Source of the DNA: Minisyncoccota bacterium
Lineage (GTDB): Bacteria > Patescibacteriota > Minisyncoccia > Phycocordibacterales > UBA9973
Direction: 5' to 3'
NCBI GenBank assembly: GCA_041659205.1
Contig: JBAZYS010000003.1
Location: 3,266-67,265, forward strand
Length of the DNA: 64,000 bases
Made by a program: the position numbers and the translations under genes. The notes beneath the pieces are model-generated. The model searched no databases and was not told the origin of the DNA. It was given only the letters and a program-made list of their open reading frames with translations. Positions within the stretch are counted from its first letter, which is position 1. Each line of letters starts with the position of its first letter. This document shows positions 2,094 through 57,439 of the stretch, one piece after another.

Positions 2094-3434
2094 TTAGATA
2101 GAAAATCTTTCGTCAATTCTCTCCATGTCTCTTGGGAACATCGAGGCTTCACGAACGTTTTTAAGTCCTAAAAGCTGCATAGTAATACGCTCAGATCCAA
2201 AAGCAAAACCACCTTCAGGTGGAACACCGTATTTGAATGCTTCCAAAAACATTTTAATTTTATTTGGATCCATCTTCCACAATTTCACATGTTCCATCAG
2301 CTGATCGTATTTATTTATTCTGCGTCCACCAGAGAGCCATTCAAGTCCGCGACAGAGCAAGTCCACTCCTTCGTTGAATTCCGGATTTTCTGGGTTTGGA
2401 TAAACATAAAAAGGTTTTTTTAACGTAGGATAACCATAGACGAAAACAAAGTCAGAACCTGTTTCTTTTTTTATAATTTCACAGATTTCTCTTTCATCTT
2501 GTGCATTTAAGTCTTTTTCTCCCCTTACGTCACGATTAAAGTTCTCGAATATTTTCTGCTGTGCCTCAACTAATGAAAGCGTCGGTGTCTTTTCTATCAT
2601 CACTGGAAGCTCTGCTTTTAAGAGTTTTAAATGGTCAGCATTTTTCTCTTTTACTTTTTCTAAAATAAACCTCACAGTTCCTTCTGCCATATCTCGAACA
2701 TCTTCCCATCCATCGATAAATGCCATTTCAGCATCGAGAGATACAACTTCTGTCAGATGTCTCGTGGTGGCACTTGGTTCAGCGCGGAAAATTTTATTTA
2801 CAGAAAAAACTCTCTCGAATGCCGTCATCACGATTTGTTTATAAAGCTGAGGAGATTGAGTAAGATACGCTTTTTTATCAAAATAATCAATTTGGAAAAC
2901 TTCACTTCCACCTTCTGCTACTGCGGGTGTGATGGAGGGAGCTTGAAATTCAAAAAACAAATTTTGTTTCATAAACTCTCTAAAAGAATCTATAATCGTT
3001 TCTTGCACCTTGAAGACTGCCTGAACCTTTGGGTGACGTAAAACGAGCGCGCGATTATCTAGCTCTGTGACTAAATCTAGATTATATCCGTCCAGAGACA
3101 TATCGAAAGGAAGTGATGCAGCTTCTCCTAGAATTTCTATATTTAAAACTTCGAGTTCAATGTCGCCATTTAATACGCCTTGTTTAATATTTTTCTCTGG
3201 ACGTTTATTTACTATTCCTGTCATTTTAAGAACCCATTCGAGCCTTACTTCTTTTGCTTTTTCAATAGCTTCTGCATGACTAGGTAATACTACACATTGA
3301 ACCTTACCCGTCATGTCGCGCATATCAAAAAATACCATTTTACCTTGATCACGCCTGACGTCCACCCATCCAGCGATGATGATCTCCTTGCCAACATTGT
3401 CCTTTAAATCCTTAATATAAATACGATTCTTCAT
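2094..3434 (-). CDS. aspS: Aspartyl-tRNA synthetase, archaeal/eukaryal type (class II), probably non-discriminating
   Basis: 446 aa; N-terminal OB fold, class II motifs FRAEPS, QSPQLYKQ, C-terminal GFAFGSERITM; the SPQLYKQ signature fits AspRS rather than AsnRS (SGQLY). Confidence 0.75.
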   Translation of the reverse strand: MKNRIYIKDLKDNVGKEIIIAGWVDVRRDQGKMVFFDMRDMTGKVQCVVLPSHAEAIEKAKEVRLEWVLKMTGIVNKRPEKNIKQGVLNGDIELEVLNIEILGEAASLPFDMSLDGYNLDLVTELDNRALVLRHPKVQAVFKVQETIIDSFREFMKQNLFFEFQAPSITPAVAEGGSEVFQIDYFDKKAYLTQSPQLYKQIVMTAFERVFSVNKIFRAEPSATTRHLTEVVSLDAEMAFIDGWEDVRDMAEGTVRFILEKVKEKNADHLKLLKAELPVMIEKTPTLSLVEAQQKIFENFNRDVRGEKDLNAQDEREICEIIKKETGSDFVFVYGYPTLKKPFYVYPNPENPEFNEGVDLLCRGLEWLSGGRRINKYDQLMEHVKLWKMDPNKIKMFLEAFKYGVPPEGGFAFGSERITMQLLGLKNVREASMFPRDMERIDERFSI

Positions 3435-3551
3435 CCTATTAGAAAATTAAAATAATAAACTCATTTTTTTCATACACGTCCGGTGATTTTCTAACAGGAC
3501 AGGTATAAAAGAATATTAACACGAAATTAATTATAAAAAAAGACAAAAAAA

Positions 3552-9406: not shown

Positions 9407-10414
9407 ATGCAACCAAAAATTATAGAGAAATATTTTTTCTTTGGGCTCTTAGCTGCTACTTTTATCTTTACTTTTCTAATTTTTCAGCCTTTTTGGATTG
9501 TGCTTGTTTTGGGTGTTTCATTCTCAATAATGCTTTATCCTGTCTATCAGTGGTTAAGTAGGAAGCATTTACCAAGCTGGCTAGCTGCTCTTATAACCTT
9601 AACTCTATTCATCTTAGTACTTTGTCTTCCACTTTTTGGAGTTATAACCATTGTCTTTAATCAATCTCAAGATCTTTATTATTCTATCGCAAACAATGGC
9701 AACACTTTCCCCTTAATAAGCTCAATTGGAAATAAAATAAATCATTTTTTGCCAAATGGAATATATTTTGACATAAATGAAAAAGTTTCTGGCTTTATTT
9801 CCTTCTTAACAAATAATTTGGCGAATATATTTAGTGCCACACTTTCTGTTTTGTTCTCTTTTGTTTTAATGCTCTTAACTATTTTCTATTTTTTGAAAGA
9901 TGGAGAAATGTGGAGAAAAGCATTATTAAAATTTAGTCCACTCTCCGACTCTGATGATGAAAAAATAATTGGCAGACTTTCACAGACAATTAATGAAGTG
10001 ATGAAAGGAACTCTTTTTATTGCTATCATTCAAGGCATATTGATGAGCATTGGCCTCACAATCTTCGGTGTCCAAAATGCAGCTATCTGGGGTGTAGTCG
10101 CAGCAATCACTTCCCTCATACCATCCGTAGGGACAGCGATGGTCTCTGTCCCGGCAATTATTTTCCTTTTCATGACTGGGCACATCGTCCCAGCCTTTGG
10201 TCTTACTATCTGGTCCACAATAGTGGTGGGCACAATAGACAATTTCCTAACTCCATATATCATTGGAAATAAAATTAAAATTCCTCCATTCTTGATTCTT
10301 TTTTCAGTTCTAGGTGGTATCGCCCTTCTTGGACCCGTTGGTATTTTAATTGGTCCCCTTGCAGTTAGTTTGCTATATACTCTAACTGAAATATACCAGA
10401 GCGAATTTAAATAA
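9407..10414 (+). CDS. AI-2E family transporter (PerM/YdiK-like permease)
   Basis: 335 aa, about 8 TM; conserved C-terminal region with TPYIIGNK...G...G.hGhhhGP pattern. Confidence 0.7.
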   Translation: MQPKIIEKYFFFGLLAATFIFTFLIFQPFWIVLVLGVSFSIMLYPVYQWLSRKHLPSWLAALITLTLFILVLCLPLFGVITIVFNQSQDLYYSIANNGNTFPLISSIGNKINHFLPNGIYFDINEKVSGFISFLTNNLANIFSATLSVLFSFVLMLLTIFYFLKDGEMWRKALLKFSPLSDSDDEKIIGRLSQTINEVMKGTLFIAIIQGILMSIGLTIFGVQNAAIWGVVAAITSLIPSVGTAMVSVPAIIFLFMTGHIVPAFGLTIWSTIVVGTIDNFLTPYIIGNKIKIPPFLILFSVLGGIALLGPVGILIGPLAVSLLYTLTEIYQSEFK

Positions 10415-38118: not shown

Positions 38119-39393
38119 TTATATAACAACTCCACCACCCAAGCAAATATCACCATCATAGACAACGATGGATTGGCCAGAGGCCACTAAGGTATTTTTT
38201 GCAAAAATTATCTCAGCTTTTCCTCCAGAAAGAACTTTAACCTTGCAAGGTAAAAATTCTCCATGATAACGAATCTGCGCAATGTAATTTTTGTTCGATT
38301 CAGGAATTCCTGAAATCCAATTTGTGTTATTAATTTCTACACAAAAACTATTTTCAGAAGAGGCTACGGAGCGCGACGGCGTGAGTCTTGAGGAATTTTT
38401 CAACAGAAAAATATCCGGACTCTTTTGAGAATAGTTTTTATTTTGCGATACTATCAAAATATTTTTCTTAATATCTTTTCCGATTACAAAATACGCACCA
38501 TCTGTGGACGTCTTTTGGGTAATTGTAAAACCATGTCGTTCCCCCAAAGTATGAAATACAACTCCATCATGATGGCCAATCGTTTCCCCAATTTCATTTA
38601 CCACTTTGCCTTTTTTAGACTTTATATAGTGTTTTAAAAAATCTTTCAAATCTACCGCTCCTAGAAAACAAATTCCTTGGCTATCTTTCTTCTCGGCAAC
38701 CGGAAGATTAAATTTCTTCGCAAGTTTTCTCACTTTCGTTTTCTTTAAATTACCAATTGGAAATAAAATTTTCTTTAATTGTTCTTGCTTTAGTGTCCAC
38801 AAAAAATAACTTTGATCCTTCGATGGATCTACACCTTTTTTAAGACAAAACAAATTATGTTTTTCGAATACCGACGTTGCTTTAGCAGGCAGGTTGAGAA
38901 AAGCATGATTTGTTTTGTCTTGCTGGCGATGTAAAAATTGTTTTTTTTCGGGAATATCCTGCTTCGCAACGTCACCACTCAAAAAATCAATTTTTACATC
39001 GCCATTCTCCGCATAATGTCCTGTCGCCACAAAATCAGCTCCCATCGCAAGAGCTTTTTTGAGAAATGCACCGAACTTCACTTCTTTATTGCACATCACA
39101 TCAGGATTCGGGGTTCGTCCCAGTTTATATTCACTTATCATATAGTCAGCCACTTCCTTTTTATAAACATCTGCAAGGTCAAAAGTAAGAAATGGAATAT
39201 CTAAAAAAGCAGCCACACGCATGGCGTCACGACGCTCGTCTTCTTCATTACATTCAAGGAAATCTGGATGCCAAGTTTTAATAAAAACTCCCACTACGTC
39301 AAAACCCTGCTTTTTTAACAAAGCAGCTGAGACGGCACTATCTACACCTCCTGATATTCCTACAAATACAGTTTTTTTCGTTAGGTTTTTCAT
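38119..39393 (-). CDS. mnmA: tRNA-specific 2-thiouridylase MnmA (with an insertion of about 50 aa)
   Basis: 424 aa; PP-loop VGISGGVDSAV N-terminus, catalytic Cys region, C-terminal beta-barrel. Confidence 0.8.
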   Translation of the reverse strand: MKNLTKKTVFVGISGGVDSAVSAALLKKQGFDVVGVFIKTWHPDFLECNEEDERRDAMRVAAFLDIPFLTFDLADVYKKEVADYMISEYKLGRTPNPDVMCNKEVKFGAFLKKALAMGADFVATGHYAENGDVKIDFLSGDVAKQDIPEKKQFLHRQQDKTNHAFLNLPAKATSVFEKHNLFCLKKGVDPSKDQSYFLWTLKQEQLKKILFPIGNLKKTKVRKLAKKFNLPVAEKKDSQGICFLGAVDLKDFLKHYIKSKKGKVVNEIGETIGHHDGVVFHTLGERHGFTITQKTSTDGAYFVIGKDIKKNILIVSQNKNYSQKSPDIFLLKNSSRLTPSRSVASSENSFCVEINNTNWISGIPESNKNYIAQIRYHGEFLPCKVKVLSGGKAEIIFAKNTLVASGQSIVVYDGDICLGGGVVI

Positions 39394-40095: not shown

Positions 40096-41055
40096 TTATT
40101 TTAAATATTTAAATTTATTCTGCACATGCTCTGCAAAAGTTTTTGCATAATGAATACCTCCATCTTTGTCATGGAGATAATAAAGATATGGAGAACTTTC
40201 TGGATAGATAGATGCCTTTATTGCTAGAATGCCAGGATTACTGATTGGGCTCTTCGGTAATCCTCTTGTCTGATAAGTCTCGGGTGCAGCGTCAACCTGA
40301 AGGGGCATACCAATCTTTATTCTTCTCCAGAGAATTCCAGAGATTACCCCCCGATCAATATCTCCTTTTGACTCTCTCTCGATGATTGAAGCCATGATTA
40401 TGATATCTTTCTCATTTTTATTTAAAGAAATAATTTCTTTACGAAGAGGATTAATTTTTTTCTCAAAATTTTCTGTCATTGATTTTAATACAACTTTTTC
40501 ATCAGCATCCGCTAGAAAAAAATATGTATCTGGGAAAAGATAACCTTCATATTTTTTTGCTTGTATCAAAAACTGAGCATTATTAAAATTTATTAACTTT
40601 AATGAAACCGTATCTCCTATTTGGCCTATATCATAACCCTCTGGAATTGTTATTGAAACAGGTGCCATTCTATGCTCACCACTTGCTATACGCCAGGCTA
40701 TTTCCCAAACTGGCAATTTTTTTTCAAATAAATAGTTAGCAGAAACTATGTGTAGCTCTGCCCCAAAAATTATCACAAAGGATTCAAATATCACCCTGGA
40801 ACGTATTAAATGTTCATTTTTAAGTTCAGCAGAAATATTCCGCAAGTTTGACCCTTTCTCTACTCTCAGGATAGCTCCAACTGGAAAATCTCTAGGTGTA
40901 CTTATAAATAAAAAATAAACAAAACCTAAAGATATAGCTGAGCCGACTAAATAATAAAAATATTTTTTATTATTCTTCCACGAAGGACAGTCTTTCGTAG
41001 AAACGAAGGATTGTCCTTCGTTAGGATTTTTAAATTCTTTAGGTAAATTTTCCAT
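40096..41055 (-). CDS. mltG: Endolytic murein transglycosylase MltG (YceG-like)
   Basis: N-terminal TM plus YceG domain; the track ORF 40096-41109 would overlap the upstream gene, so the internal M was chosen. Confidence 0.65.
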   Translation of the reverse strand: MENLPKEFKNPNEGQSFVSTKDCPSWKNNKKYFYYLVGSAISLGFVYFLFISTPRDFPVGAILRVEKGSNLRNISAELKNEHLIRSRVIFESFVIIFGAELHIVSANYLFEKKLPVWEIAWRIASGEHRMAPVSITIPEGYDIGQIGDTVSLKLINFNNAQFLIQAKKYEGYLFPDTYFFLADADEKVVLKSMTENFEKKINPLRKEIISLNKNEKDIIIMASIIERESKGDIDRGVISGILWRRIKIGMPLQVDAAPETYQTRGLPKSPISNPGILAIKASIYPESSPYLYYLHDKDGGIHYAKTFAEHVQNKFKYLK

Positions 41056-51402: not shown

Positions 51403-52185
51403 TTAGAAAGCTTTAGGAGCTGGTGCATCAGAACCCTTTAGGGCACTCGTAATGCTTTCAATTGAAGAAAAAGAGGAAGTATCAGGAGAAAGTGCTATAC
51501 CTAACACTTCGCCATCTAAATTAAGAACTAGAGAACCTATGTTTGATTTTGAAACAGTTATATCAATATTCTTATTTGAATTCAAGCCTTCAAACATAAA
51601 AGAAGTTGTAGTATTTCCTATTACTAGAACCTTCTGTCCGATTTTCATTTTACTTAAGTCTCCAAATGTTGGAACAGTATAACTAAGTTTGTCAGTTCCA
51701 TTAACAGCAGCTCCTACTTTAATAAAAGAAAACCCTTCCTTATTCGTCGAAACAAAATCAGCTTTAAATTTTCCACTATCATTTTTAACATAATAAACTC
51801 CCTTGTCCGGCACGAGTGAAGCATCAACGACGACAGTATCATCAGTGGAAACTACAAACCCTCTCCCAGCAGAGACTTCAACAGTTTTCAGATCTATGTC
51901 TTGTGTTTCTTTTGTAATAGAAAATACTGAAGATTTATTTTTAGCAATTGCATCCACTACCAAATCTTCTTCCTTAACGACGACAGTCTGCACTGTAGTC
52001 TTGCCTTCCACTTGCTGAATTTTCTCAATTGTTTGTTGGACGACACGATTTATCGGCGCAGTAAAAGACACGGGTGCTTGTTGCATCAAGGTCACAGTCG
52101 TAATGCCCGTCGCAATAGAAGTAATGAAAGAAAGCAATACTGCGAGCAATATAAGTTGTGATTTATTTAAATCTTTAATATCCAT
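51403..52185 (-). CDS. Membrane-anchored trypsin-like (S1/HtrA-like) domain protein, apparently catalytically inactive
   Basis: 260 aa; N-terminal TM; GRGFVVS ... SNIGSLVLNLDGEVLGIA aligns to the HtrA GNSGGPL.N..GE.IGI block with the catalytic Ser replaced. Confidence 0.4.
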   Translation of the reverse strand: MDIKDLNKSQLILLAVLLSFITSIATGITTVTLMQQAPVSFTAPINRVVQQTIEKIQQVEGKTTVQTVVVKEEDLVVDAIAKNKSSVFSITKETQDIDLKTVEVSAGRGFVVSTDDTVVVDASLVPDKGVYYVKNDSGKFKADFVSTNKEGFSFIKVGAAVNGTDKLSYTVPTFGDLSKMKIGQKVLVIGNTTTSFMFEGLNSNKNIDITVSKSNIGSLVLNLDGEVLGIALSPDTSSFSSIESITSALKGSDAPAPKAF

Positions 52186-52188
52186 TTC

Positions 52189-53523
52189 TCAATTATACCA
52201 TTTTTTTAGCTTTGTCAAAACTTGAGATAAAACTTTAATTGTGTAGTCAATATCTTTCTTTGTAGTCTGCCTGCCCATTGAAAAACGAAGTCCGCCTATC
52301 TCTCTATCTATCTCTGGATGTATTGCTTTTATAACGTATGAGCCTTCTACGTTGGAACTTTTACAAGCACTCTTTGAAGAAGCCATAACACCCTTCGCAG
52401 AAAGTTCTATAACTAAAAGGTCACTTTGAATTTTAGGAAATGTTACGTTCACATTGTTCGGTAATCTATTTTTTAGATCGCCGTTAAATATATGCGGAGC
52501 AAAAGAATGATTTTTGAATGGTCTGGGGATTTTTTCCGAGGACCTGAAAAAATTATTCTTTTGCGAAGCTAATAACTTTTTAAAAAAATAATCACGAAGT
52601 TTTGTTAAGCGTTTGCTTTCTTTTTCTTTAATATCTTGTGCTAATTTTAATGCATTAGAAAATTTCAAAATTTCTGCTAAATTTTCTGTCCCTGGACGTA
52701 ATCCCATTTCTTGGTCTCCCCCACCATATACATTTGCAAGTTTAACCATTTTTCTTTTATAAAGAACTCCGACTTTCCCCCCACCTTCAATCTTCGAACC
52801 AGATAATGAAAGTAAATCCACGCCGAGTCTCTCTACATTAAGATCTAAATAATTAACAGCCTGCACTGCATCAGTATGAAATAAAGGTAAAGAAAATGAA
52901 GGAAATAATTTCTTTGAATGGTCTGGGGATTTTTTCCGAGGACCTGAAAAAAAATTGATTTCCTTCATTTTCTTAAAATGCCTAATCTCTTTTGCGATCT
53001 CACGAATCGTCTGTATTGTGCCTATTTCGTTATTCGCATACATTACCGAAACAAGTATTGTATTGGTCTTAATTTCTTTTTTTATTTTTTTGGGATCCAC
53101 TATTCCATTCTCCTCAACAGGGACAATTGAAATTTCCACAAGTTTTCTTTTTTCTAATAATTTAAAAGTTTCAAGCACTGAGGGATGTTCAATGTTTGTG
53201 GTTATAATGTGCGGAAGGAGTTGTTTGGTAGTTTTTGAAATGCCTTGCGCAGGCTGACGAGCCGAGCAGAGCAATTCGCCAACAGGCGAATATGTGTGCA
53301 TTTCAAAAATTGACCAAACAACTCCTTGTATCGCAAGATTGTTACTTTCTGTACCCCCACTCGTAAAAATTATTTCTTCAGGTCTAGATCCCAAAACACT
53401 CGCCACAGCTTTGCGCGCATTTTGAAGTTTATTTTTTGCATCTACCCCGAGAGAATGAATTGAGCTAGGATTTGCTTCTACGCTAGCAGCGTAATCTAGG
53501 TATATTTTGTTTGATTTAACCAT
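52189..53523 (-). CDS. Cysteine desulfurase (class V aminotransferase, IscS/NifS-like) carrying three in-frame insertions
   Basis: 444 aa; TSGGTESNN, HTDAVQA, SLSGSK(I) PLP-lysine region, C-terminal SACKSS active-site Cys loop; insertions relative to IscS coincide with repeat elements. Confidence 0.8.
   Translation of the reverse strand: MVKSNKIYLDYAASVEANPSSIHSLGVDAKNKLQNARKAVASVLGSRPEEIIFTSGGTESNNLAIQGVVWSIFEMHTYSPVGELLCSARQPAQGISKTTKQLLPHIITTNIEHPSVLETFKLLEKRKLVEISIVPVEENGIVDPKKIKKEIKTNTILVSVMYANNEIGTIQTIREIAKEIRHFKKMKEINFFSGPRKKSPDHSKKLFPSFSLPLFHTDAVQAVNYLDLNVERLGVDLLSLSGSKIEGGGKVGVLYKRKMVKLANVYGGGDQEMGLRPGTENLAEILKFSNALKLAQDIKEKESKRLTKLRDYFFKKLLASQKNNFFRSSEKIPRPFKNHSFAPHIFNGDLKNRLPNNVNVTFPKIQSDLLVIELSAKGVMASSKSACKSSNVEGSYVIKAIHPEIDREIGGLRFSMGRQTTKKDIDYTIKVLSQVLTKLKKWYN
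52499..52564. mobile_element. Palindromic insertion element family A, copy 1 (inside the cysteine desulfurase ORF, in frame)
   Basis: 38 bp core tgaatggtctggggattttttccgaggacctgaaaaaatt flanked by a copy-specific inverted repeat gcaaaagaat/attcttttgc. Confidence 0.6.
52892..52972. mobile_element. Palindromic insertion element family A, copy 2 (inside the cysteine desulfurase ORF, in frame, read in a different frame)
   Basis: Identical 38 bp core (+2 A) flanked by a different inverted repeat gaaaatgaaggaaat/atttccttcattttc. Confidence 0.6.
53215..53327. mobile_element. Palindromic insertion element family B, copy 1 (inside the cysteine desulfurase ORF, in frame)
   Basis: Outer inverted repeat aaggagttgtttggt/accaaacaactcctt; inner tttgaaatgc-cttgcgcaggctgacgagccgagcagagcaa-[hairpin attcgcc aacag ggcgaat]-atgtgtgcatttcaaa. 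Confidence 0.6.
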
Positions 53524-53547
53524 AAAAATAGTATATATTGAAATTGT

Positions 53548-54012
53548 ATGAATACAAAGCTCGAGATAACTTTTTTTGTTTTAAGCGGAATTGCCATTTT
53601 GGGTACTCTTTTCTGTACTATTTGGATTATTGTTACCGAAAAACGCCTTAAAAAGTTTTTTCTTGGTAAAAAAGCAAAAGATTTAGAAGATACAATTTCT
53701 ATTTTGGAAACTGAAATCAACAAATTAAATAAGGCAAAAGAAGAACTTGAAAAAAATATTGTTACAATAAACTCTAAACTTAAAAAAAGTATCAGAGGAC
53801 TTGAGACCATACGTTTCAATCCTTTCCCTGACCAAGGCAGTAACCAGAGCTTTGCTATTGGAATGCTCAATGAAGAAGGTAGCGGCCTAGTAATTTCAAG
53901 TTTATATTCTCGTGAGAGAATGAGTATCTTTGCTAAACCAATAAAAAATGGAAAATCAGAATACGAACTCACTAATGAGGAAAAAGAGGCTCTAGAAAAA
54001 GCAAAGGTATAA
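53548..54012 (+). CDS. DUF4446-like membrane/coiled-coil protein upstream of infB
   Basis: 154 aa; N-terminal TM then coiled coil; 6 bp before infB; preferred over the antisense hydrophobic ORF 53496-54044. Confidence 0.5.
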   Translation: MNTKLEITFFVLSGIAILGTLFCTIWIIVTEKRLKKFFLGKKAKDLEDTISILETEINKLNKAKEELEKNIVTINSKLKKSIRGLETIRFNPFPDQGSNQSFAIGMLNEEGSGLVISSLYSRERMSIFAKPIKNGKSEYELTNEEKEALEKAKV

Positions 54013-54018
54013 AAAATT

Positions 54019-55539
54019 ATGAAAACTGATGAAAAAGAAAACAAAATAATTGTACATCCACCTGTCGTGGCTGTAATGGGACATATTGACCATGGAAAAT
54101 CAACCTTACTTGATTACATCAGGAAAACAAATATTACTGAAACTGAAACTGGAGGAATAACTCAGAGAATTTCTGCTTATGAAGTCGTGCATAAAGATGA
54201 AAATGGGCAAAATAGAAAAATAACTTTTCTAGATACACCGGGCCATGAAGCTTTTTCTAAAATGAGGGAACGGGGTGCAGAGATAGCCGATATTGCAATC
54301 CTCGTCGTCTCCGCAGAAGATGGAGTAAAACCTCAAACGATTGAAGCCTGGAAAACTATAACTGAATCCAAAATTCCCTACATTGTTGCTATAAACAAAA
54401 TAGATAAGCCAGGGGCGAATGTTGAAAAAACAAAAATGGAGTTAGCAGAAAATGAAATCTATCTTGAAAATTATGGAGGGACAGTCCCCTTCACAGAAAT
54501 TTCTGCAAAAGATGGTACGGGTGTAGATGATTTGTTGACGCTCATCTTAGTCTTAGCTGATATGGAAAACCTGACTGGAAACAAAAATGAAGAAGCAGCG
54601 GGTTTTGTAATTGAAGTAAACCTAGACTCAAGACGCGGAATCATGGCGAGTTTGGTTATAAAAAACGGCACAATGAGAAAAGGAATGACCGTGGTTGTAG
54701 AAGACAGCATGTGTTCTACCCGTATCATTGAAAACTTTTTAGGTAAAAGTATAGATGAAGCTACGTTCTCTTCCCCTGTGCGTGTCGTAGGCTTCGACAA
54801 GATGCCTAGAGTGGGAGCACCGTTTAAAACTTTTCAAAAAAAATCAGATGCCATTAAATACACAGAAGATTGGAAAGAAGGAAAAATTGCTGAAAAAACA
54901 AAAAATAATAAAACAAGCAATGAAGAAAATACTAAAAAAATAATACCGATAATATTAAAAGCGGATGTTTCAGGTTCTATTGAGGCTATCGAAAAAGAAA
55001 TAGCTAAAATCAGAAATGATAATGCTGAATTTAAAATTGTTGTAAAAGGCATCGGACCAATCACTGAATCTGATATAAAAGGAGTGTCCCAAGGAGCGGA
55101 TGCAATAGTCATCGGTTTTAACGTTAAAACAGACAAAAGTGCACTCGAAGTCGCCGAAAAAAGAGGCATTACAATCTCCTTTTTTGAAATTATTTACAAA
55201 ATGACCGAATGGCTTGAAGAACAAATGGAAATACGAAGACCAAAGATTGAAACCATGGAAACAACTGGCCAAGCGAAAATTATTCGCGCTTTCAGCCGTA
55301 CTAAAGAACGTCAGATAGTCGGAGGCAAAGTAACTGTGGGTCAAATTAACTTAAATAGCACTGTCAGAATTATGCGCCGTGAATTTGAAATTGGTCGTGC
55401 AAAAATAATTAACTTAGAAAAAAGTAAAGTTAAAACAAGCACCGTCGAGGAGGGTGCTGAGTTCGGAATGATGATTGAATCAAAGATTGAAGTCGTCGCT
55501 GGAGATATATTGGAATCATTCTCCGTAATTCAAAAATAA
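54019..55539 (+). CDS. infB: Translation initiation factor IF-2 (short form starting at the G domain)
   Basis: 506 aa; [28 protein letters not shown]; C-terminal beta-barrel domains. Confidence 0.9.
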
Positions 55540-55540
55540 T

Positions 55541-55873
55541 ATGGGAGAAGAAAATAAAAGAACTGAAAAAGTGTCTAATGCCATCAAGGAGCTCGCTGCT
55601 CAGTTCCTAGGACGCGAGAACAATAGAACTTCTCTCATCACTGTAACTTCTGCCAATGTCTCCCCTGACCTGAAGCGCGCGACTATCTTCATCACAGTCC
55701 TACCTGATTCCAAAGAACATGATGCACTTGAATTCGCAAAAAGAAAAAGAGCAGAACTTCGAGATTTTTTGAAAAAGAATATGCCGATAAAAGTAATCCC
55801 TTTTGTTGACATAATGATTGATAAAGGAGAAAAAAATCGTCAGAAAATTGACGAACTGCTCCGAAATGGTTAA
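55541..55873 (+). CDS. rbfA: Ribosome-binding factor A
   Basis: 110 aa KH-like RbfA; follows infB as in the canonical order. Confidence 0.8.
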   Translation: MGEENKRTEKVSNAIKELAAQFLGRENNRTSLITVTSANVSPDLKRATIFITVLPDSKEHDALEFAKRKRAELRDFLKKNMPIKVIPFVDIMIDKGEKNRQKIDELLRNG

Positions 55874-55875
55874 AC

Positions 55876-55983
55876 TTCTTCAAATAGTCTTTGAAAAATG
55901 CCTTGCGCAGGCTGACGAGCCGAGCAGAGCAAATTTTCAGCAGAAAATTATGTGTGCATTTTGAGAAGAGCTATTTGAAGAAG
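55876..55983. mobile_element. Palindromic insertion element family B, copy 2 (intergenic, right after the rbfA stop)
   Basis: Outer inverted repeat cttcttcaaatag/ctatttgaagaag; same conserved inner cores; central hairpin replaced by the compensatory aattttc-agcag-gaaaatt. Confidence 0.6.
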
Positions 55984-55990
55984 TCTAAAT

Positions 55991-56062
55991 GGCCTGGTAG
56001 CCAAGTGGTAAGGCATTCCTCTGCAAAAGGAATATACGGCGGTTCGATTCCGCCCCAGGCCT
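55991..56062 (+). tRNA. tRNA-Cys (GCA)
   Basis: Acceptor GGCCTGG/CCAGGCC, anticodon loop cuGCAaa, T-loop GGTTCGATTCC, discriminator U. Confidence 0.85.
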
Positions 56063-56612: not shown

Positions 56613-56640
56613 GCCCCCATAGCTTATAGGCTATGGGGGC
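56613..56640 (+). terminator. Hairpin after the tRNA cluster (gcccccatag ... ctatgggggc)
   Basis: 10 bp perfect stem; weak U-run. Confidence 0.4.
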
Positions 56641-56659
56641 TTGACATTTGTATGGATAA

Positions 56660-57439
56660 GTGCTATACTTCTCTTATATGAATACAACAAAAAACAATTC
56701 AATAGTTTTCGGCTTGAAAATGTTGTCTATTTTGGCATTTAGCCTATTAGTTATACCTGCGACAGCTTCAGCTACCCTGGCTTTTACCCCTACCCCAAGT
56801 GAAAATCCAGCACCAATGGTTAACTCAATAAGCCCAGATTCTAAAAACAGAAATGACAACGTTAATACGATAACAATTACAGGAAGTGGATTTATCTCAA
56901 ATTCTGTAGCTAGGGTAAATGGACAAGTACGTCCTACTGTCTTTATTGATGCTTCTCATCTCTCACTTCAGTTAATTGGGAATGATGCATATAATCCTGA
57001 CGGACTTTATATTAATGTCTTTAATGAATTGCCAGGAGGAGGGTACTCAAATGCTGCTTTCTTCAAAACAAATATGATTGTCCCTGCAACTACAAATACA
57101 GGAAATACAAATGGGAACACCAGCAACAATAACTATGGTAATGCAAACACAAACGGAAATACAAATAACACTAATTCTTCTGCATCAAAAAATACCAAAA
57201 ACAGTAACACGAGTACTTCTACAAACAACAACCAAACAAAAAGTTCGACTACTACTGATGCAAACTCAAACTATAGCAACCTAGCATCTAATGCAATATT
57301 TGGAACAAATGGTTTTATGCCAACTGGCCTAATACAATGGATATTGTTTGCGATAATCGTATTACTACTTATTATTTTAGTTAGAAAAATCTTTGGTGGT
57401 AAAAAGAATTACGACGAAGCACCTATGAAGCACGCGTAA
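56660..57439 (+). CDS. Cell-surface protein with IPT/TIG-like domain, Asn/Thr-rich linker and C-terminal TM anchor
   Basis: Signal peptide; ISPDS..ITITGSGF...VNG block; long N/T low-complexity stretch; C-terminal hydrophobic helix plus basic tail. Confidence 0.45.
   Translation: MLYFSYMNTTKNNSIVFGLKMLSILAFSLLVIPATASATLAFTPTPSENPAPMVNSISPDSKNRNDNVNTITITGSGFISNSVARVNGQVRPTVFIDASHLSLQLIGNDAYNPDGLYINVFNELPGGGYSNAAFFKTNMIVPATTNTGNTNGNTSNNNYGNANTNGNTNNTNSSASKNTKNSNTSTSTNNNQTKSSTTTDANSNYSNLASNAIFGTNGFMPTGLIQWILFAIIVLLLIILVRKIFGGKKNYDEAPMKHA

Follow-up and report, generated by a model that had tools for sequence, protein, structure and literature searches.

Translated hairpin insertions in a patescibacterial cysteine desulfurase gene: a candidate family of palindromic elements with host-derived stems

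Introduction

In-frame palindromic "protein-coding parasites" are best known from Rickettsia. The Rickettsia palindromic elements (RPEs), which were reportedly described by Ogata et al. in 2000, are about 100–150 bp long, and their sequence is conserved along this length throughout the family. We know of no report of RPE stems built from the flanking host sequence. As short palindromic repeats they lie in frame in unrelated housekeeping genes, where they are translated at positions compatible with the protein fold, and intergenic copies exist too (PMC10969869). Two hairpins of similar behaviour were found within the cysteine desulfurase gene of an ultra-small bacterium of the Minisyncoccota. 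The gene lies in a 64,000-nucleotide stretch of DNA (GenBank assembly GCA_041659205.1, contig JBAZYS010000003.1, positions 3,266 to 67,265 of the forward strand), and the whole stretch is called the window here. The two hairpins carry the same core and belong to what is called family 1 below. We hold with moderate confidence that they are RPE-like translated palindromic elements of a non-coding hairpin family specific to Nomurabacteria- and Paceibacterota-type Patescibacteria, and that they were spread and grown by template switching during replication. Their most interesting feature is that one arm of the stem appears to come from the host gene and the other to be its inverted copy.

The likeness to RPEs is one of behaviour. 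Family 1 is palindromic, with dispersed copies in one lineage that all fold as hairpins (53 loci plus the two window copies). Its members are inserted in frame in diverse housekeeping genes (44 of 57 copies) at positions that were modelled as coil with a low predicted local distance difference test (pLDDT) score, the host is a bacterium with a reduced genome, and intergenic copies occur as well. In contrast to RPEs, the conserved part is only a core of 30–55 nt, the stems of 12–30 nt are copy-specific inverted host flank, and the whole element is much smaller. The host here belongs to the Patescibacteria, so the family is an analogue at best and not a member of the RPEs.

Template switching during replication can create, extend and homogenise inverted repeats and can invert the spacers between them (PMC8794818, PMC8604942, PMC7202029). 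The present hairpins resemble the resulting quasipalindromes in three ways: one arm appears to have been copied from the other, the two arms have been made alike through apparent compensatory changes, and the spacer can be inverted. However, the known cases are local only, whereas the hairpin loop here is a conserved repeat in many loci and genomes, and because of this a dispersed "element" seems to ride on the template-switch process. Long perfect inverted repeats also occur in translated, functional genes of the AT-rich, reduced mitochondrial genomes of Nematomorpha (PMC6649704). In that case both arms are conserved protein sequence and there is no mobile core, whereas here one arm and the core are extra loop residues.

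Two copies of one core in the cysteine desulfurase gene

The host gene (52189–53523, minus strand) encodes a 444-aa class-V aminotransferase/cysteine desulfurase of the IscS/NifS-like type and contains three hairpin insertions. The protein matched Pfam PF00266 (E = 3e-47, split in three stretches) and IscS/NifS-type cysteine desulfurases of the PDB (E down to 2e-59), and it was 100% identical to an annotated protein of a Candidatus Paceibacterota metagenome-assembled genome (MAG). The original prediction had placed an identical 38-bp element twice within this gene. The duplication was upheld, the exact direct repeat being 40 nt long (TTTGAATGGTCTGGGGATTTTTTCCGAGGACCTGAAAAAA) and lying at 52513–52552 and 52913–52952, both within the open reading frame (ORF). 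However, the range first given to the second copy (52915–52956) exceeds it by 2 nt, and copy 2 departs from the quoted string in its last two letters. When up to three mismatches were allowed, the 38-nt core had only these two sites in the 64 kb, with none expected from 100 shuffles. The starts of the two copies, named copy 1 and copy 2 in order of position, are 400 nt apart, which is not a multiple of three. Since both copies share one ORF, they are read in different frames, and the ORF translation gives the two peptides, NNFFRSSEKIPRPFKNHSF and INFFSGPRKKSPDHSKK, that had been predicted. An example of a junction peptide of the insert is ...NNFFRSSEKIPRPFK....

Each 40-nt copy forms the tip of a long hairpin with its own stem. 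The complete hairpin of copy 1 (52499–52564, 66 nt) consists of arm, T-run, core, A-run and arm, and occupies a loop called site 3 (residues ~322–342). Its inverted repeat (52499–52515/52548–52564) is 17 nt long and 94% complementary. The hairpin of copy 2 (52890–52974, 85 nt) occupies a second loop, site 2 (residues ~186–213), and has an inverted repeat of 26 nt that is 88% complementary (52890–52915/52949–52974). The core of copy 1 (52516–52546, plus strand) is a short family-1 variant, GAATGGTCTGGGGATTTTTTCCGAGGACCTG, which the gene reads in the reverse orientation and which is identical in three other genomes (L017, L027 and L044). The core of copy 2 (52916–52946, plus strand) has the same letters in the other reading frame. 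In contrast to the cores, the arms of copy 1 are unlike those of copy 2, and the stem arms of both copies had no further occurrence when they were searched across the window, so the stems do not form a second repeat family. The folds were stable for both copies, with –21.7 kcal/mol on the sense strand and –32.1 kcal/mol on the plus strand for copy 1 (z about –6.5 to –6.7 versus shuffles) and –33.1 kcal/mol for copy 2 (z –7.9 versus shuffles). In the whole window, nine long-armed inverted repeats with spacers of 20–110 nt were counted, versus a mean of 2.1 in first-order Markov random sequences.

The source of the window is a MAG, and identical repeats 400 nt apart can in principle come from mis-assembly, so it was considered whether the repeat could be an artefact of assembly or have arisen by chance in an AT-rich MAG. 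This explanation is effectively refuted. Zero chance matches were expected, and the ORF is intact. Copy 2 and the third, family-2 insert of the gene are present with a few substitutions in an independent assembly from another sample (L001), and the family was found in over 40 MAGs and some 80 contigs of metagenomes, which come from many projects. The original prediction would have fallen if the segments were merely conserved protein sequence in relatives, with no repeats of their nucleotides elsewhere, or if the repeats were an artefact; what was found instead are nucleotide-level copies at other loci and the same structures in independent assemblies.

Both copies had been predicted to lie inside insertions relative to E. 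coli IscS, and the alignments agree with this. Those to solved structures of IscS/NifS enzymes, among them 1p3w of E. coli IscS, are interrupted or gapped at query residues ~70–93, 181–214 and ~316–340. The close orthologs range from 379 to 456 aa, and what mainly varies is whether these three loops carry an insert, and of which type, with one or two more loops involved. Insert-free close orthologs exist at every one of the three sites. An AlphaFold model from an alignment of 20 sequences was too poor for use (pLDDT 47.5), and the model built with 120 orthologs was used instead (mean pLDDT 80.8, predicted template modelling score 0.82). In this model the three inserted segments are low-confidence coil with block means of 41–57, between flanking elements above 90. 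The values were 43–48 for residues 81–100 (site 1), 53–57 for residues 191–210 (site 2) and 41 for residues 331–340 (site 3). The inserts are predicted to sit in tolerant surface loops of the cysteine desulfurase, a pyridoxal phosphate-dependent enzyme in which the element had been proposed to be tolerated.

Family 1 is dispersed among related genomes and mostly lies in frame

The conserved unit of family 1 comprises, in order, a T-run of 4–7 bases, GAATGGTCTGG, a variable inner hairpin, (C)CGAGGACCTG(A), and an A-run that is one base longer than the T-run. The short variant of the window has GGATTTTTTC in place of the inner hairpin. The core of 30–55 nt always lies between the T-run and the A-run. 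Its conserved ends, GGTC.. and ..GACC, pair with each other, and the long outer repeats are copy-specific and host-derived. Among subfamilies the inner hairpins vary by paired changes (CTGGG/CCCAG, CCGGG/CCCGG, GCG/CGC, GCC/GGC and GTCTGC/GCAGAC). Some family-1 cores are enlarged by a nested insert within the inner loop (FLNGLAGIGLESA[LM]KTDSK.NRGPEK), as in P0022 (site 2) and P0241 (PheT), and because of these nested inserts, it is suggested that hairpin loops themselves are insertion targets.

To find further copies, one genome per prokaryotic species was scanned with the pattern GAATGGTCTGG N{3,33} GAGGACCTKAAAA. The scan returned 53 loci (L003–L055) with 1–5 per genome, where about 0.1 chance matches would be expected, as estimated from pattern length and collection size. 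All 53 loci came from MAGs labelled Nomurabacteria, Paceibacterota, Patescibacteria group, (uncultured) Saccharibacteria or unclassified "bacterium". The same core pattern gave 0 matches in the viral contigs scanned, so there is no sign of a phage vector.

The scan loci, the window copies and L002 together gave 57 copies for study. Of these, 44 (77%) are intragenic: each lies in an ORF of 150 aa or more whose reading frame runs through the element without a stop. They are read in several frames, and 17 have the forward and 27 the reverse orientation. The other 13 are in short spacers between housekeeping genes such as those for RecA, ClpP, YidC, RnpA and a dUTPase. No gene is interrupted by any of the 57 copies. 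The intragenic hosts include the cysteine desulfurase (at all three sites), MnmA (in the loop after GHYA), PheT, UvrA, RsmA-like and HD-domain proteins. The cysteine desulfurase and MnmA, whose functions are linked through the sulfur relay of tRNA thiolation, together make up 12 of the 53 unbiased matches, which may reflect tolerant loops, a common ancestry of the inserts or some property of these loci. Recurrent insert peptides are FLNGLAGVGDPENRGPEK, FFRSS..RPFKN, FSGPR..PDHSK and FFQVLG..QTIQK. Because the same nucleotide core is kept though it is read in different frames, the comparison places the conservation of the core at the DNA level and not at the protein level. At L015 (5416–6333), the ClpP gene beside an intergenic family-1 copy looks split into a 102-aa ORF (Pfam positions 3–90 of 182) and a following 201-aa ORF, which could be due to a frameshift, a sequencing error or another insertion.

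The insertions did not correspond to a described family in the sources consulted. Four insert peptides matched no Pfam family. Rfam returned only tRNAs for the window at the gathering score and nothing relevant for 52400–56000 at E ≤ 10; with only tRNAs and noise in these scans, the hairpins are no known RNA, ribozyme or intron. The literature searched, which did not extend to subscription journals, held no description of palindromic, hairpin, in-frame, mobile or selfish elements in Patescibacteria or the candidate phyla radiation (CPR), and hairpins and palindromes are unmentioned in a study of tRNA group I introns (PMC13011429). The family is provisionally regarded as undescribed. The earlier suggestion of an undescribed, RPE-analogous family of in-frame palindromes is thus borne out as far as copy number in relatives, intragenic location, reading frame and freedom from stops are concerned.

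Origin of the stems: a host-derived arm paired with its inverted copy

To trace the origin of the stems, filled and empty sites were compared among 80 orthologous cysteine desulfurase loci from metagenomes together with L001, L002 and L136. At site 2, empty orthologs read H[YF]KKxxxKxF-P[LIVYF]F-HTDA over 13–15 residues, versus 34 aa in the window. Filled orthologs have the same upstream stretch after the conserved EIR motif up to the Phe codon and its T-run, followed by the core, the reverse complement of the upstream codons and then P-x-F-HTDA. The HFKKM.. motif directly follows the EIR motif in filled and empty orthologs alike.

The same arrangement was seen at site 3. In the empty site of L085, CAAAAACAAAATTTT is joined directly to GATTTTTTA, with GATTTT after the junction. 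In the filled site of L059, GTCAAAAACAAAATTTT is followed by an insert that runs CGAGCTGG...CCCGAG AAAATTTTAGTTTTT and then by GACTTTCTA, with GACTTT after the insert. This insert consists of the core and an inverted copy of the upstream 15 nt, with TTTT at both bounds. At the protein level, the empty site of L073 passes from FKKLLKLKNQNF straight to NFLV, versus FKKLLASQKNNF, 16 inserted residues and APHIF in the window, and the loop motif ..QKQNF or ..KNQNF is present in insert-free orthologs. Between L001 (empty) and L002 (filled) there is a clean 75-nt insertion that ends in CCCGCT, an inverted copy of the upstream AGCGGG.

At site 1, ordinary loop sequence forms the upstream arm (for example YAAQEQDF versus YAAEKPGF and LAAVEQNF in empty sites), and a new arm stands downstream. 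At this site of L002 the downstream arm extends into conserved Pro-His codons, where CCGCATA matches the upstream TATGCGG; such a match is the sort of microhomology that a returning strand could use. In PheT, the upstream arm KSAESF resembles KSASPD or KSAEFD of element-free sequences, a comparison made at motif level in a gene with no clean empty site. Taken together, the upstream arm was old and the downstream arm new at all four resolvable sites, which cover two gene families and several element types and orientations, and at sites 1–3 the added length equals the core plus one arm. These comparisons indicate that host coding sequence supplies the upstream arm, from which the downstream arm was newly made as an inverted copy.

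For the window copies, the gene-upstream arm of copy 1 (52548–52564, minus strand) corresponds to the pre-existing codons S-Q-K-N-N-F with the T-run at their end, and that of copy 2 (52949–52974, minus strand) to the pre-existing coding sequence K-K-M-K-E-I-N-F. The block added in copy 1 would then be 52501–52548 (minus strand, about 48 nt), that is, the core and an inverted copy of the upstream host flank. In copy 2 it would be 52894–52950 (minus strand, about 57 nt), consisting of the core and an inverted copy of the upstream codons KKMKEIN. The boundaries of both blocks were inferred and are ambiguous by a few nt inside the T-runs. In the original prediction, the inserted DNA was a 38-bp core bracketed by perfect inverted repeats unique to each copy. 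The quoted perfect runs are indeed present, but they are not a mere bracket carried in with the core, since one arm is older gene sequence and the other its inverted copy; the length of 38 bp gives way to these larger additions of the core and a single arm.

T-runs flank the block of core and new arm as direct repeats in many copies, although not in all. TTTT at the outer boundary was enriched, being found in 12 of 44 copies versus 8% of controls. A universal T-run at the outer stem boundary was considered and rejected, as these 12 copies were the only ones to have it. Directly beside the core there is no direct target duplication, the T-run and A-run flanks being inverted.

Pairing of the stems is maintained

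A copy-specific stem beyond the T- and A-runs was present in all 57 copies, with arms of 12–30 nt and a median of 19. These lengths were obtained by gapped extension, because a conserved 1-nt A bulge stops ungapped extension. In an anchored alignment of 55 distinct copies, from which the variable inner part was removed so that all rows had equal length, 20 pairs were proposed. The proposed pairs were formed in 84.9% of cells, versus 57.0 ± 1.1% after shuffling (reached in 0 of 500 shuffles) and 47–65% with slid partners. The covariation score was 0.689 versus 0.168, with 4–6 pair types per column.

Individual comparisons gave the same picture. In L020, L068 and L097, which have the same core at the same site, the arms are TTCACC/GGTGAA, TTCATC/GATGAA and CTCGCC/GGCGAG, the downstream arm following the upstream one. 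A series of PheT copies shows paired changes in ..ATCGGC followed by GGGGTCA, AGAAAC, AGAGTCG or AAAGTTA. Copy 1 of the window has GCAAAAG/CTTTTGC versus GCAGAAG/CTTCTGC in L074, with one mismatch in common. Between copy 2 of the window and L136, the outer stem is the same, the inner stem covaries, and the core of L136 is the long variant in the opposite orientation. Uncompensated stem decay was seen in L081 and L036.

Such pairing could also mean that the hairpin is a functional structure under selection, which might control the expression of sulfur-relay and translation genes, serve RNase III-type processing, or be excised or bypassed. This would agree with the very stable folds, with the compensatory changes that keep stems and inner sub-stems paired, and with the recurrence in the same genes, where the cysteine desulfurase and MnmA make up 12 of the 53 genome matches. 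However, none of the 44 intragenic copies closes the ORF, whatever the frame in which it is read, and this would be needless if the hairpin were removed. The mismatches on the sense strand comprised 21 A.C and 12 G.U. As G.U does not exceed A.C, nothing points to selection on pairing in the mRNA, and a process at the DNA level is more likely. In addition, close orthologs without an insert exist at every site, no Rfam family matched, the copy number per genome is modest and the positions are scattered. A functional role of the hairpin therefore appears quite improbable.

A proposed origin by template switching

Template switching most likely gives the most economical account of the core, the inverted flank, the polarity, the homogenisation of the arms and the flips of the core, and its steps were inferred from the arrangement of filled and empty sites. 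A nascent sense strand that ends in a T-run would switch to the matching T/A-run of another copy and copy the core. It would then snap back on itself, copying its own upstream flank in reverse, and return to the original template through microhomology, often a T-run. Copies would thereby land beside T-runs on the sense strand of the gene, with the arm length set by the local sequence. Later switches between the arms would keep them complementary, lengthen them and occasionally flip the core. Selection would retain only in-frame, stop-free events in tolerant surface loops, leaving 16–26 extra translated residues, and this selection would account for the recurrent insertion hot spots. A dedicated enzyme and a host function are both presumably absent.

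For copy 1, the donor was probably copy 2, which lies 400 nt upstream in the same gene, because the two are identical at 40 of 40 positions while the ortholog of copy 2 in the 87%-identical L001 differs at several bases. The orientation of the gene was also considered. The cumulative GC skew has its minimum at about 52000–54000, and the gene strand flips from minus to plus between 53523 and 53548, where a divergent gene pair meets. Because this strand switch coincides with the skew minimum, the cysteine desulfurase gene is probably co-oriented with replication, and its sense strand would be the nascent leading strand. The region of about 52000–54000, which adjoins the gene, may be a replication origin; no dnaA was noticed close by.

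Several observations weigh against the template-switch account in this simple form. A T-run at the return point was found in only about a quarter of the copies. L002 has new sequence on both sides of the core at site 3 (ACTTTC.../...GAATGT), as if part of the donor's stem had been copied too, so that one simple event would not account for all of the copies. Conserved downstream codons take part in the distal stem of L059, from which it follows that change in the arms also runs the opposite way. Copy 1 is absent from L001, where the loop sequence is itself a different one, and the distant L074 has a diverged orthologous copy; for these reasons the difference at copy 1 may reflect recombination or loss instead of a recent gain. 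The polarity was resolved at four sites in two gene families, and the evidence as a whole is comparative sequence analysis of MAGs and metagenome contigs. Furthermore, families 1 and 3 have the core termini (TTTTTGAATGGT...CCTGA) in common, and these vary little from genome to genome, which would fit recognition by a sequence-specific protein.

Recognition of this kind belongs to the main alternative, in which the family is a non-autonomous element similar to transposable elements of the miniature inverted-repeat type (MITEs) or PATEs. A transposase or HUH enzyme acting in trans would recognise the core termini and insert the core with its A-run beside T-runs, and the stems would arise later by quasipalindrome correction. 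Besides the shared termini, which enclose different interiors in families 1 and 3, this explanation draws on the consistent preference for T-run targets, on the occurrence of both core orientations, and on a multi-copy family restricted to one lineage. However, no direct target duplication is found beside the core, where the T-run and A-run flanks are inverted. A host-derived stem is present in each of the 57 copies, and the "fresh" state expected from such insertion was therefore never seen. The core pattern was also absent from the viral contigs, and no transposase adjoined the copies in the neighbourhoods examined, an argument that is weak with loci this short. On this evidence, transposition of the core is considered less likely than template switching.

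MITEs have terminal inverted repeats, direct target duplications and related insertion sequences (IS), and yeast GC clusters are among the GC-rich hairpin elements of organelles. MITEs, repetitive extragenic palindromic (REP) and REPIN sequences, and the GC-rich hairpin clusters of fungal, sponge and algal organelles resemble family 1 in being small, non-coding, hairpin-forming and multi-copy. The absence of a direct duplication flanking the core sets family 1 apart from MITEs. Some hairpin elements of organelles are also found in coding regions (PMC2800124, PMC2670323). REPs are extragenic, have a GTAG/CGTC head and travel with RAYT genes (PMC3733652). In contrast, 77% of the present copies are intragenic, GTAG occurs only in some inner loops with no conserved head, and no RAYT was seen nearby. 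IS200/IS605-type (PATE-like) elements insert 3' of a fixed short target, with a strand bias and no duplication, in genomes that have TnpA. In family 1, a T-run target and a polarity relative to the gene are seen, and the core occurs in both orientations.

If the reading as RPE-like translated elements holds, a second, phylogenetically remote group with reduced genomes shows the RPE phenomenon, which would then be a general outcome of genome reduction beyond Rickettsia. The host-templated stem offers a concrete proposal, template switching, for the origin of such elements and their continued palindromy. More tentatively, the core may be a transposase-free selfish sequence that spreads by copy-choice at homopolymer runs, takes its fold-back stem from the host gene in a fixed polarity to the direction of the gene and probably of replication, and adds translated loops to essential proteins across a bacterial radiation. 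The insertions would also explain much of the length variation seen here in conserved CPR proteins, such as the cysteine desulfurase (379–456 aa) and MnmA (359–444 aa in its orthologs), and annotators and structure predictors should be aware that these loops are repeat-derived. Should the polarity with respect to gene direction be confirmed, these insertions might also be used as natural markers in uncultivated bacteria, both for the direction of replication and for the rates of template switching.

Other hairpin insertions in the window and its relatives

The third hairpin of the cysteine desulfurase gene (53215–53327, 113 nt) lies at site 1, residues ~70–103, and belongs to another family, family 2. 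It has a GC-rich core unlike that of family 1 and folds with –53.3 kcal/mol (z –8.3). The family-2 core reads ..AAATGCCTTGCGCAGGCTGACGAGCCGAGCAGAGCAA, a sub-hairpin and TATGTGTGCATTT.., the ends of the family are TTTTTGAAATGC...GCATTTCAAAAA, and the gene-upstream arm at site 1 encodes the conserved (Q)GVVW. An intergenic family-2 copy (55870–55988) has its own unrelated stem and ends 2 nt before a tRNA-Cys gene. The inner sub-stem is altered on both sides between the two window copies (ttcgcc/ggcgaa versus attttc/gaaaat), and two-sided changes of this sub-stem were also noted in copies of L096 and L112. The family-2 core string CUGACGAG looked hammerhead-like by eye, and this idea was rejected as no Rfam model supported it.

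The MnmA gene (38119–39393, minus strand; Pfam tRNA_Me_trans) contains three in-frame hairpins with different cores. The first (38343–38439), with a GC-rich core of its own, stands where the PRC-barrel domain passes into the C-terminal domain and is common to most orthologs. The other two share the loop after GHYA: one (38842–38921) has a unique core, and the other (38924–39004) has the core of family 3, CCTGCTTCGCAACGTCA, which is also found at cysteine desulfurase site 3 of L060, L098, L099 and L131. Families 1 and 3 have the common termini TTTTTGAATGGT...CCTGA(G)AAAAA and different interiors. A YceG-like gene contains, in frame and close to its N-terminus (40980–41021), a palindrome of a further family with two arms of 19 nt (ACGAAGGACAGTCTTTCGT / ACGAAGGATTGTCCTTCGT), and this family was also seen at site 2 of the L002 cysteine desulfurase.

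When the window and L001 were compared over 21 kb for hairpins present in one and absent from the other, only small GC-rich mini-hairpins differed. They lie in frame at 10016–10048 and 19112–19132 of L001 and at the N-terminus of the gene in L002, and are absent from the window. One example, TTGTCCCGCCGTGGCGGGG, encodes LSRRGGVKGSN, and these sequences seem to be one more class of short palindromic insert. In the window itself, two AT-rich inverted repeats of lesser strength (3434–3499 and 56619–56754), with arms of 14–15 nt that contain mismatches, may be chance occurrences or degraded elements. A recurrent insert peptide, ..LTPSPLSLxRRGVGER.. or ..LRHPLLxKERxGER.., was observed at cysteine desulfurase sites 1 and 2 of L077, L097, L104, L113, L115, L127 and L035, which suggests that one or more additional repeat families use these loops.

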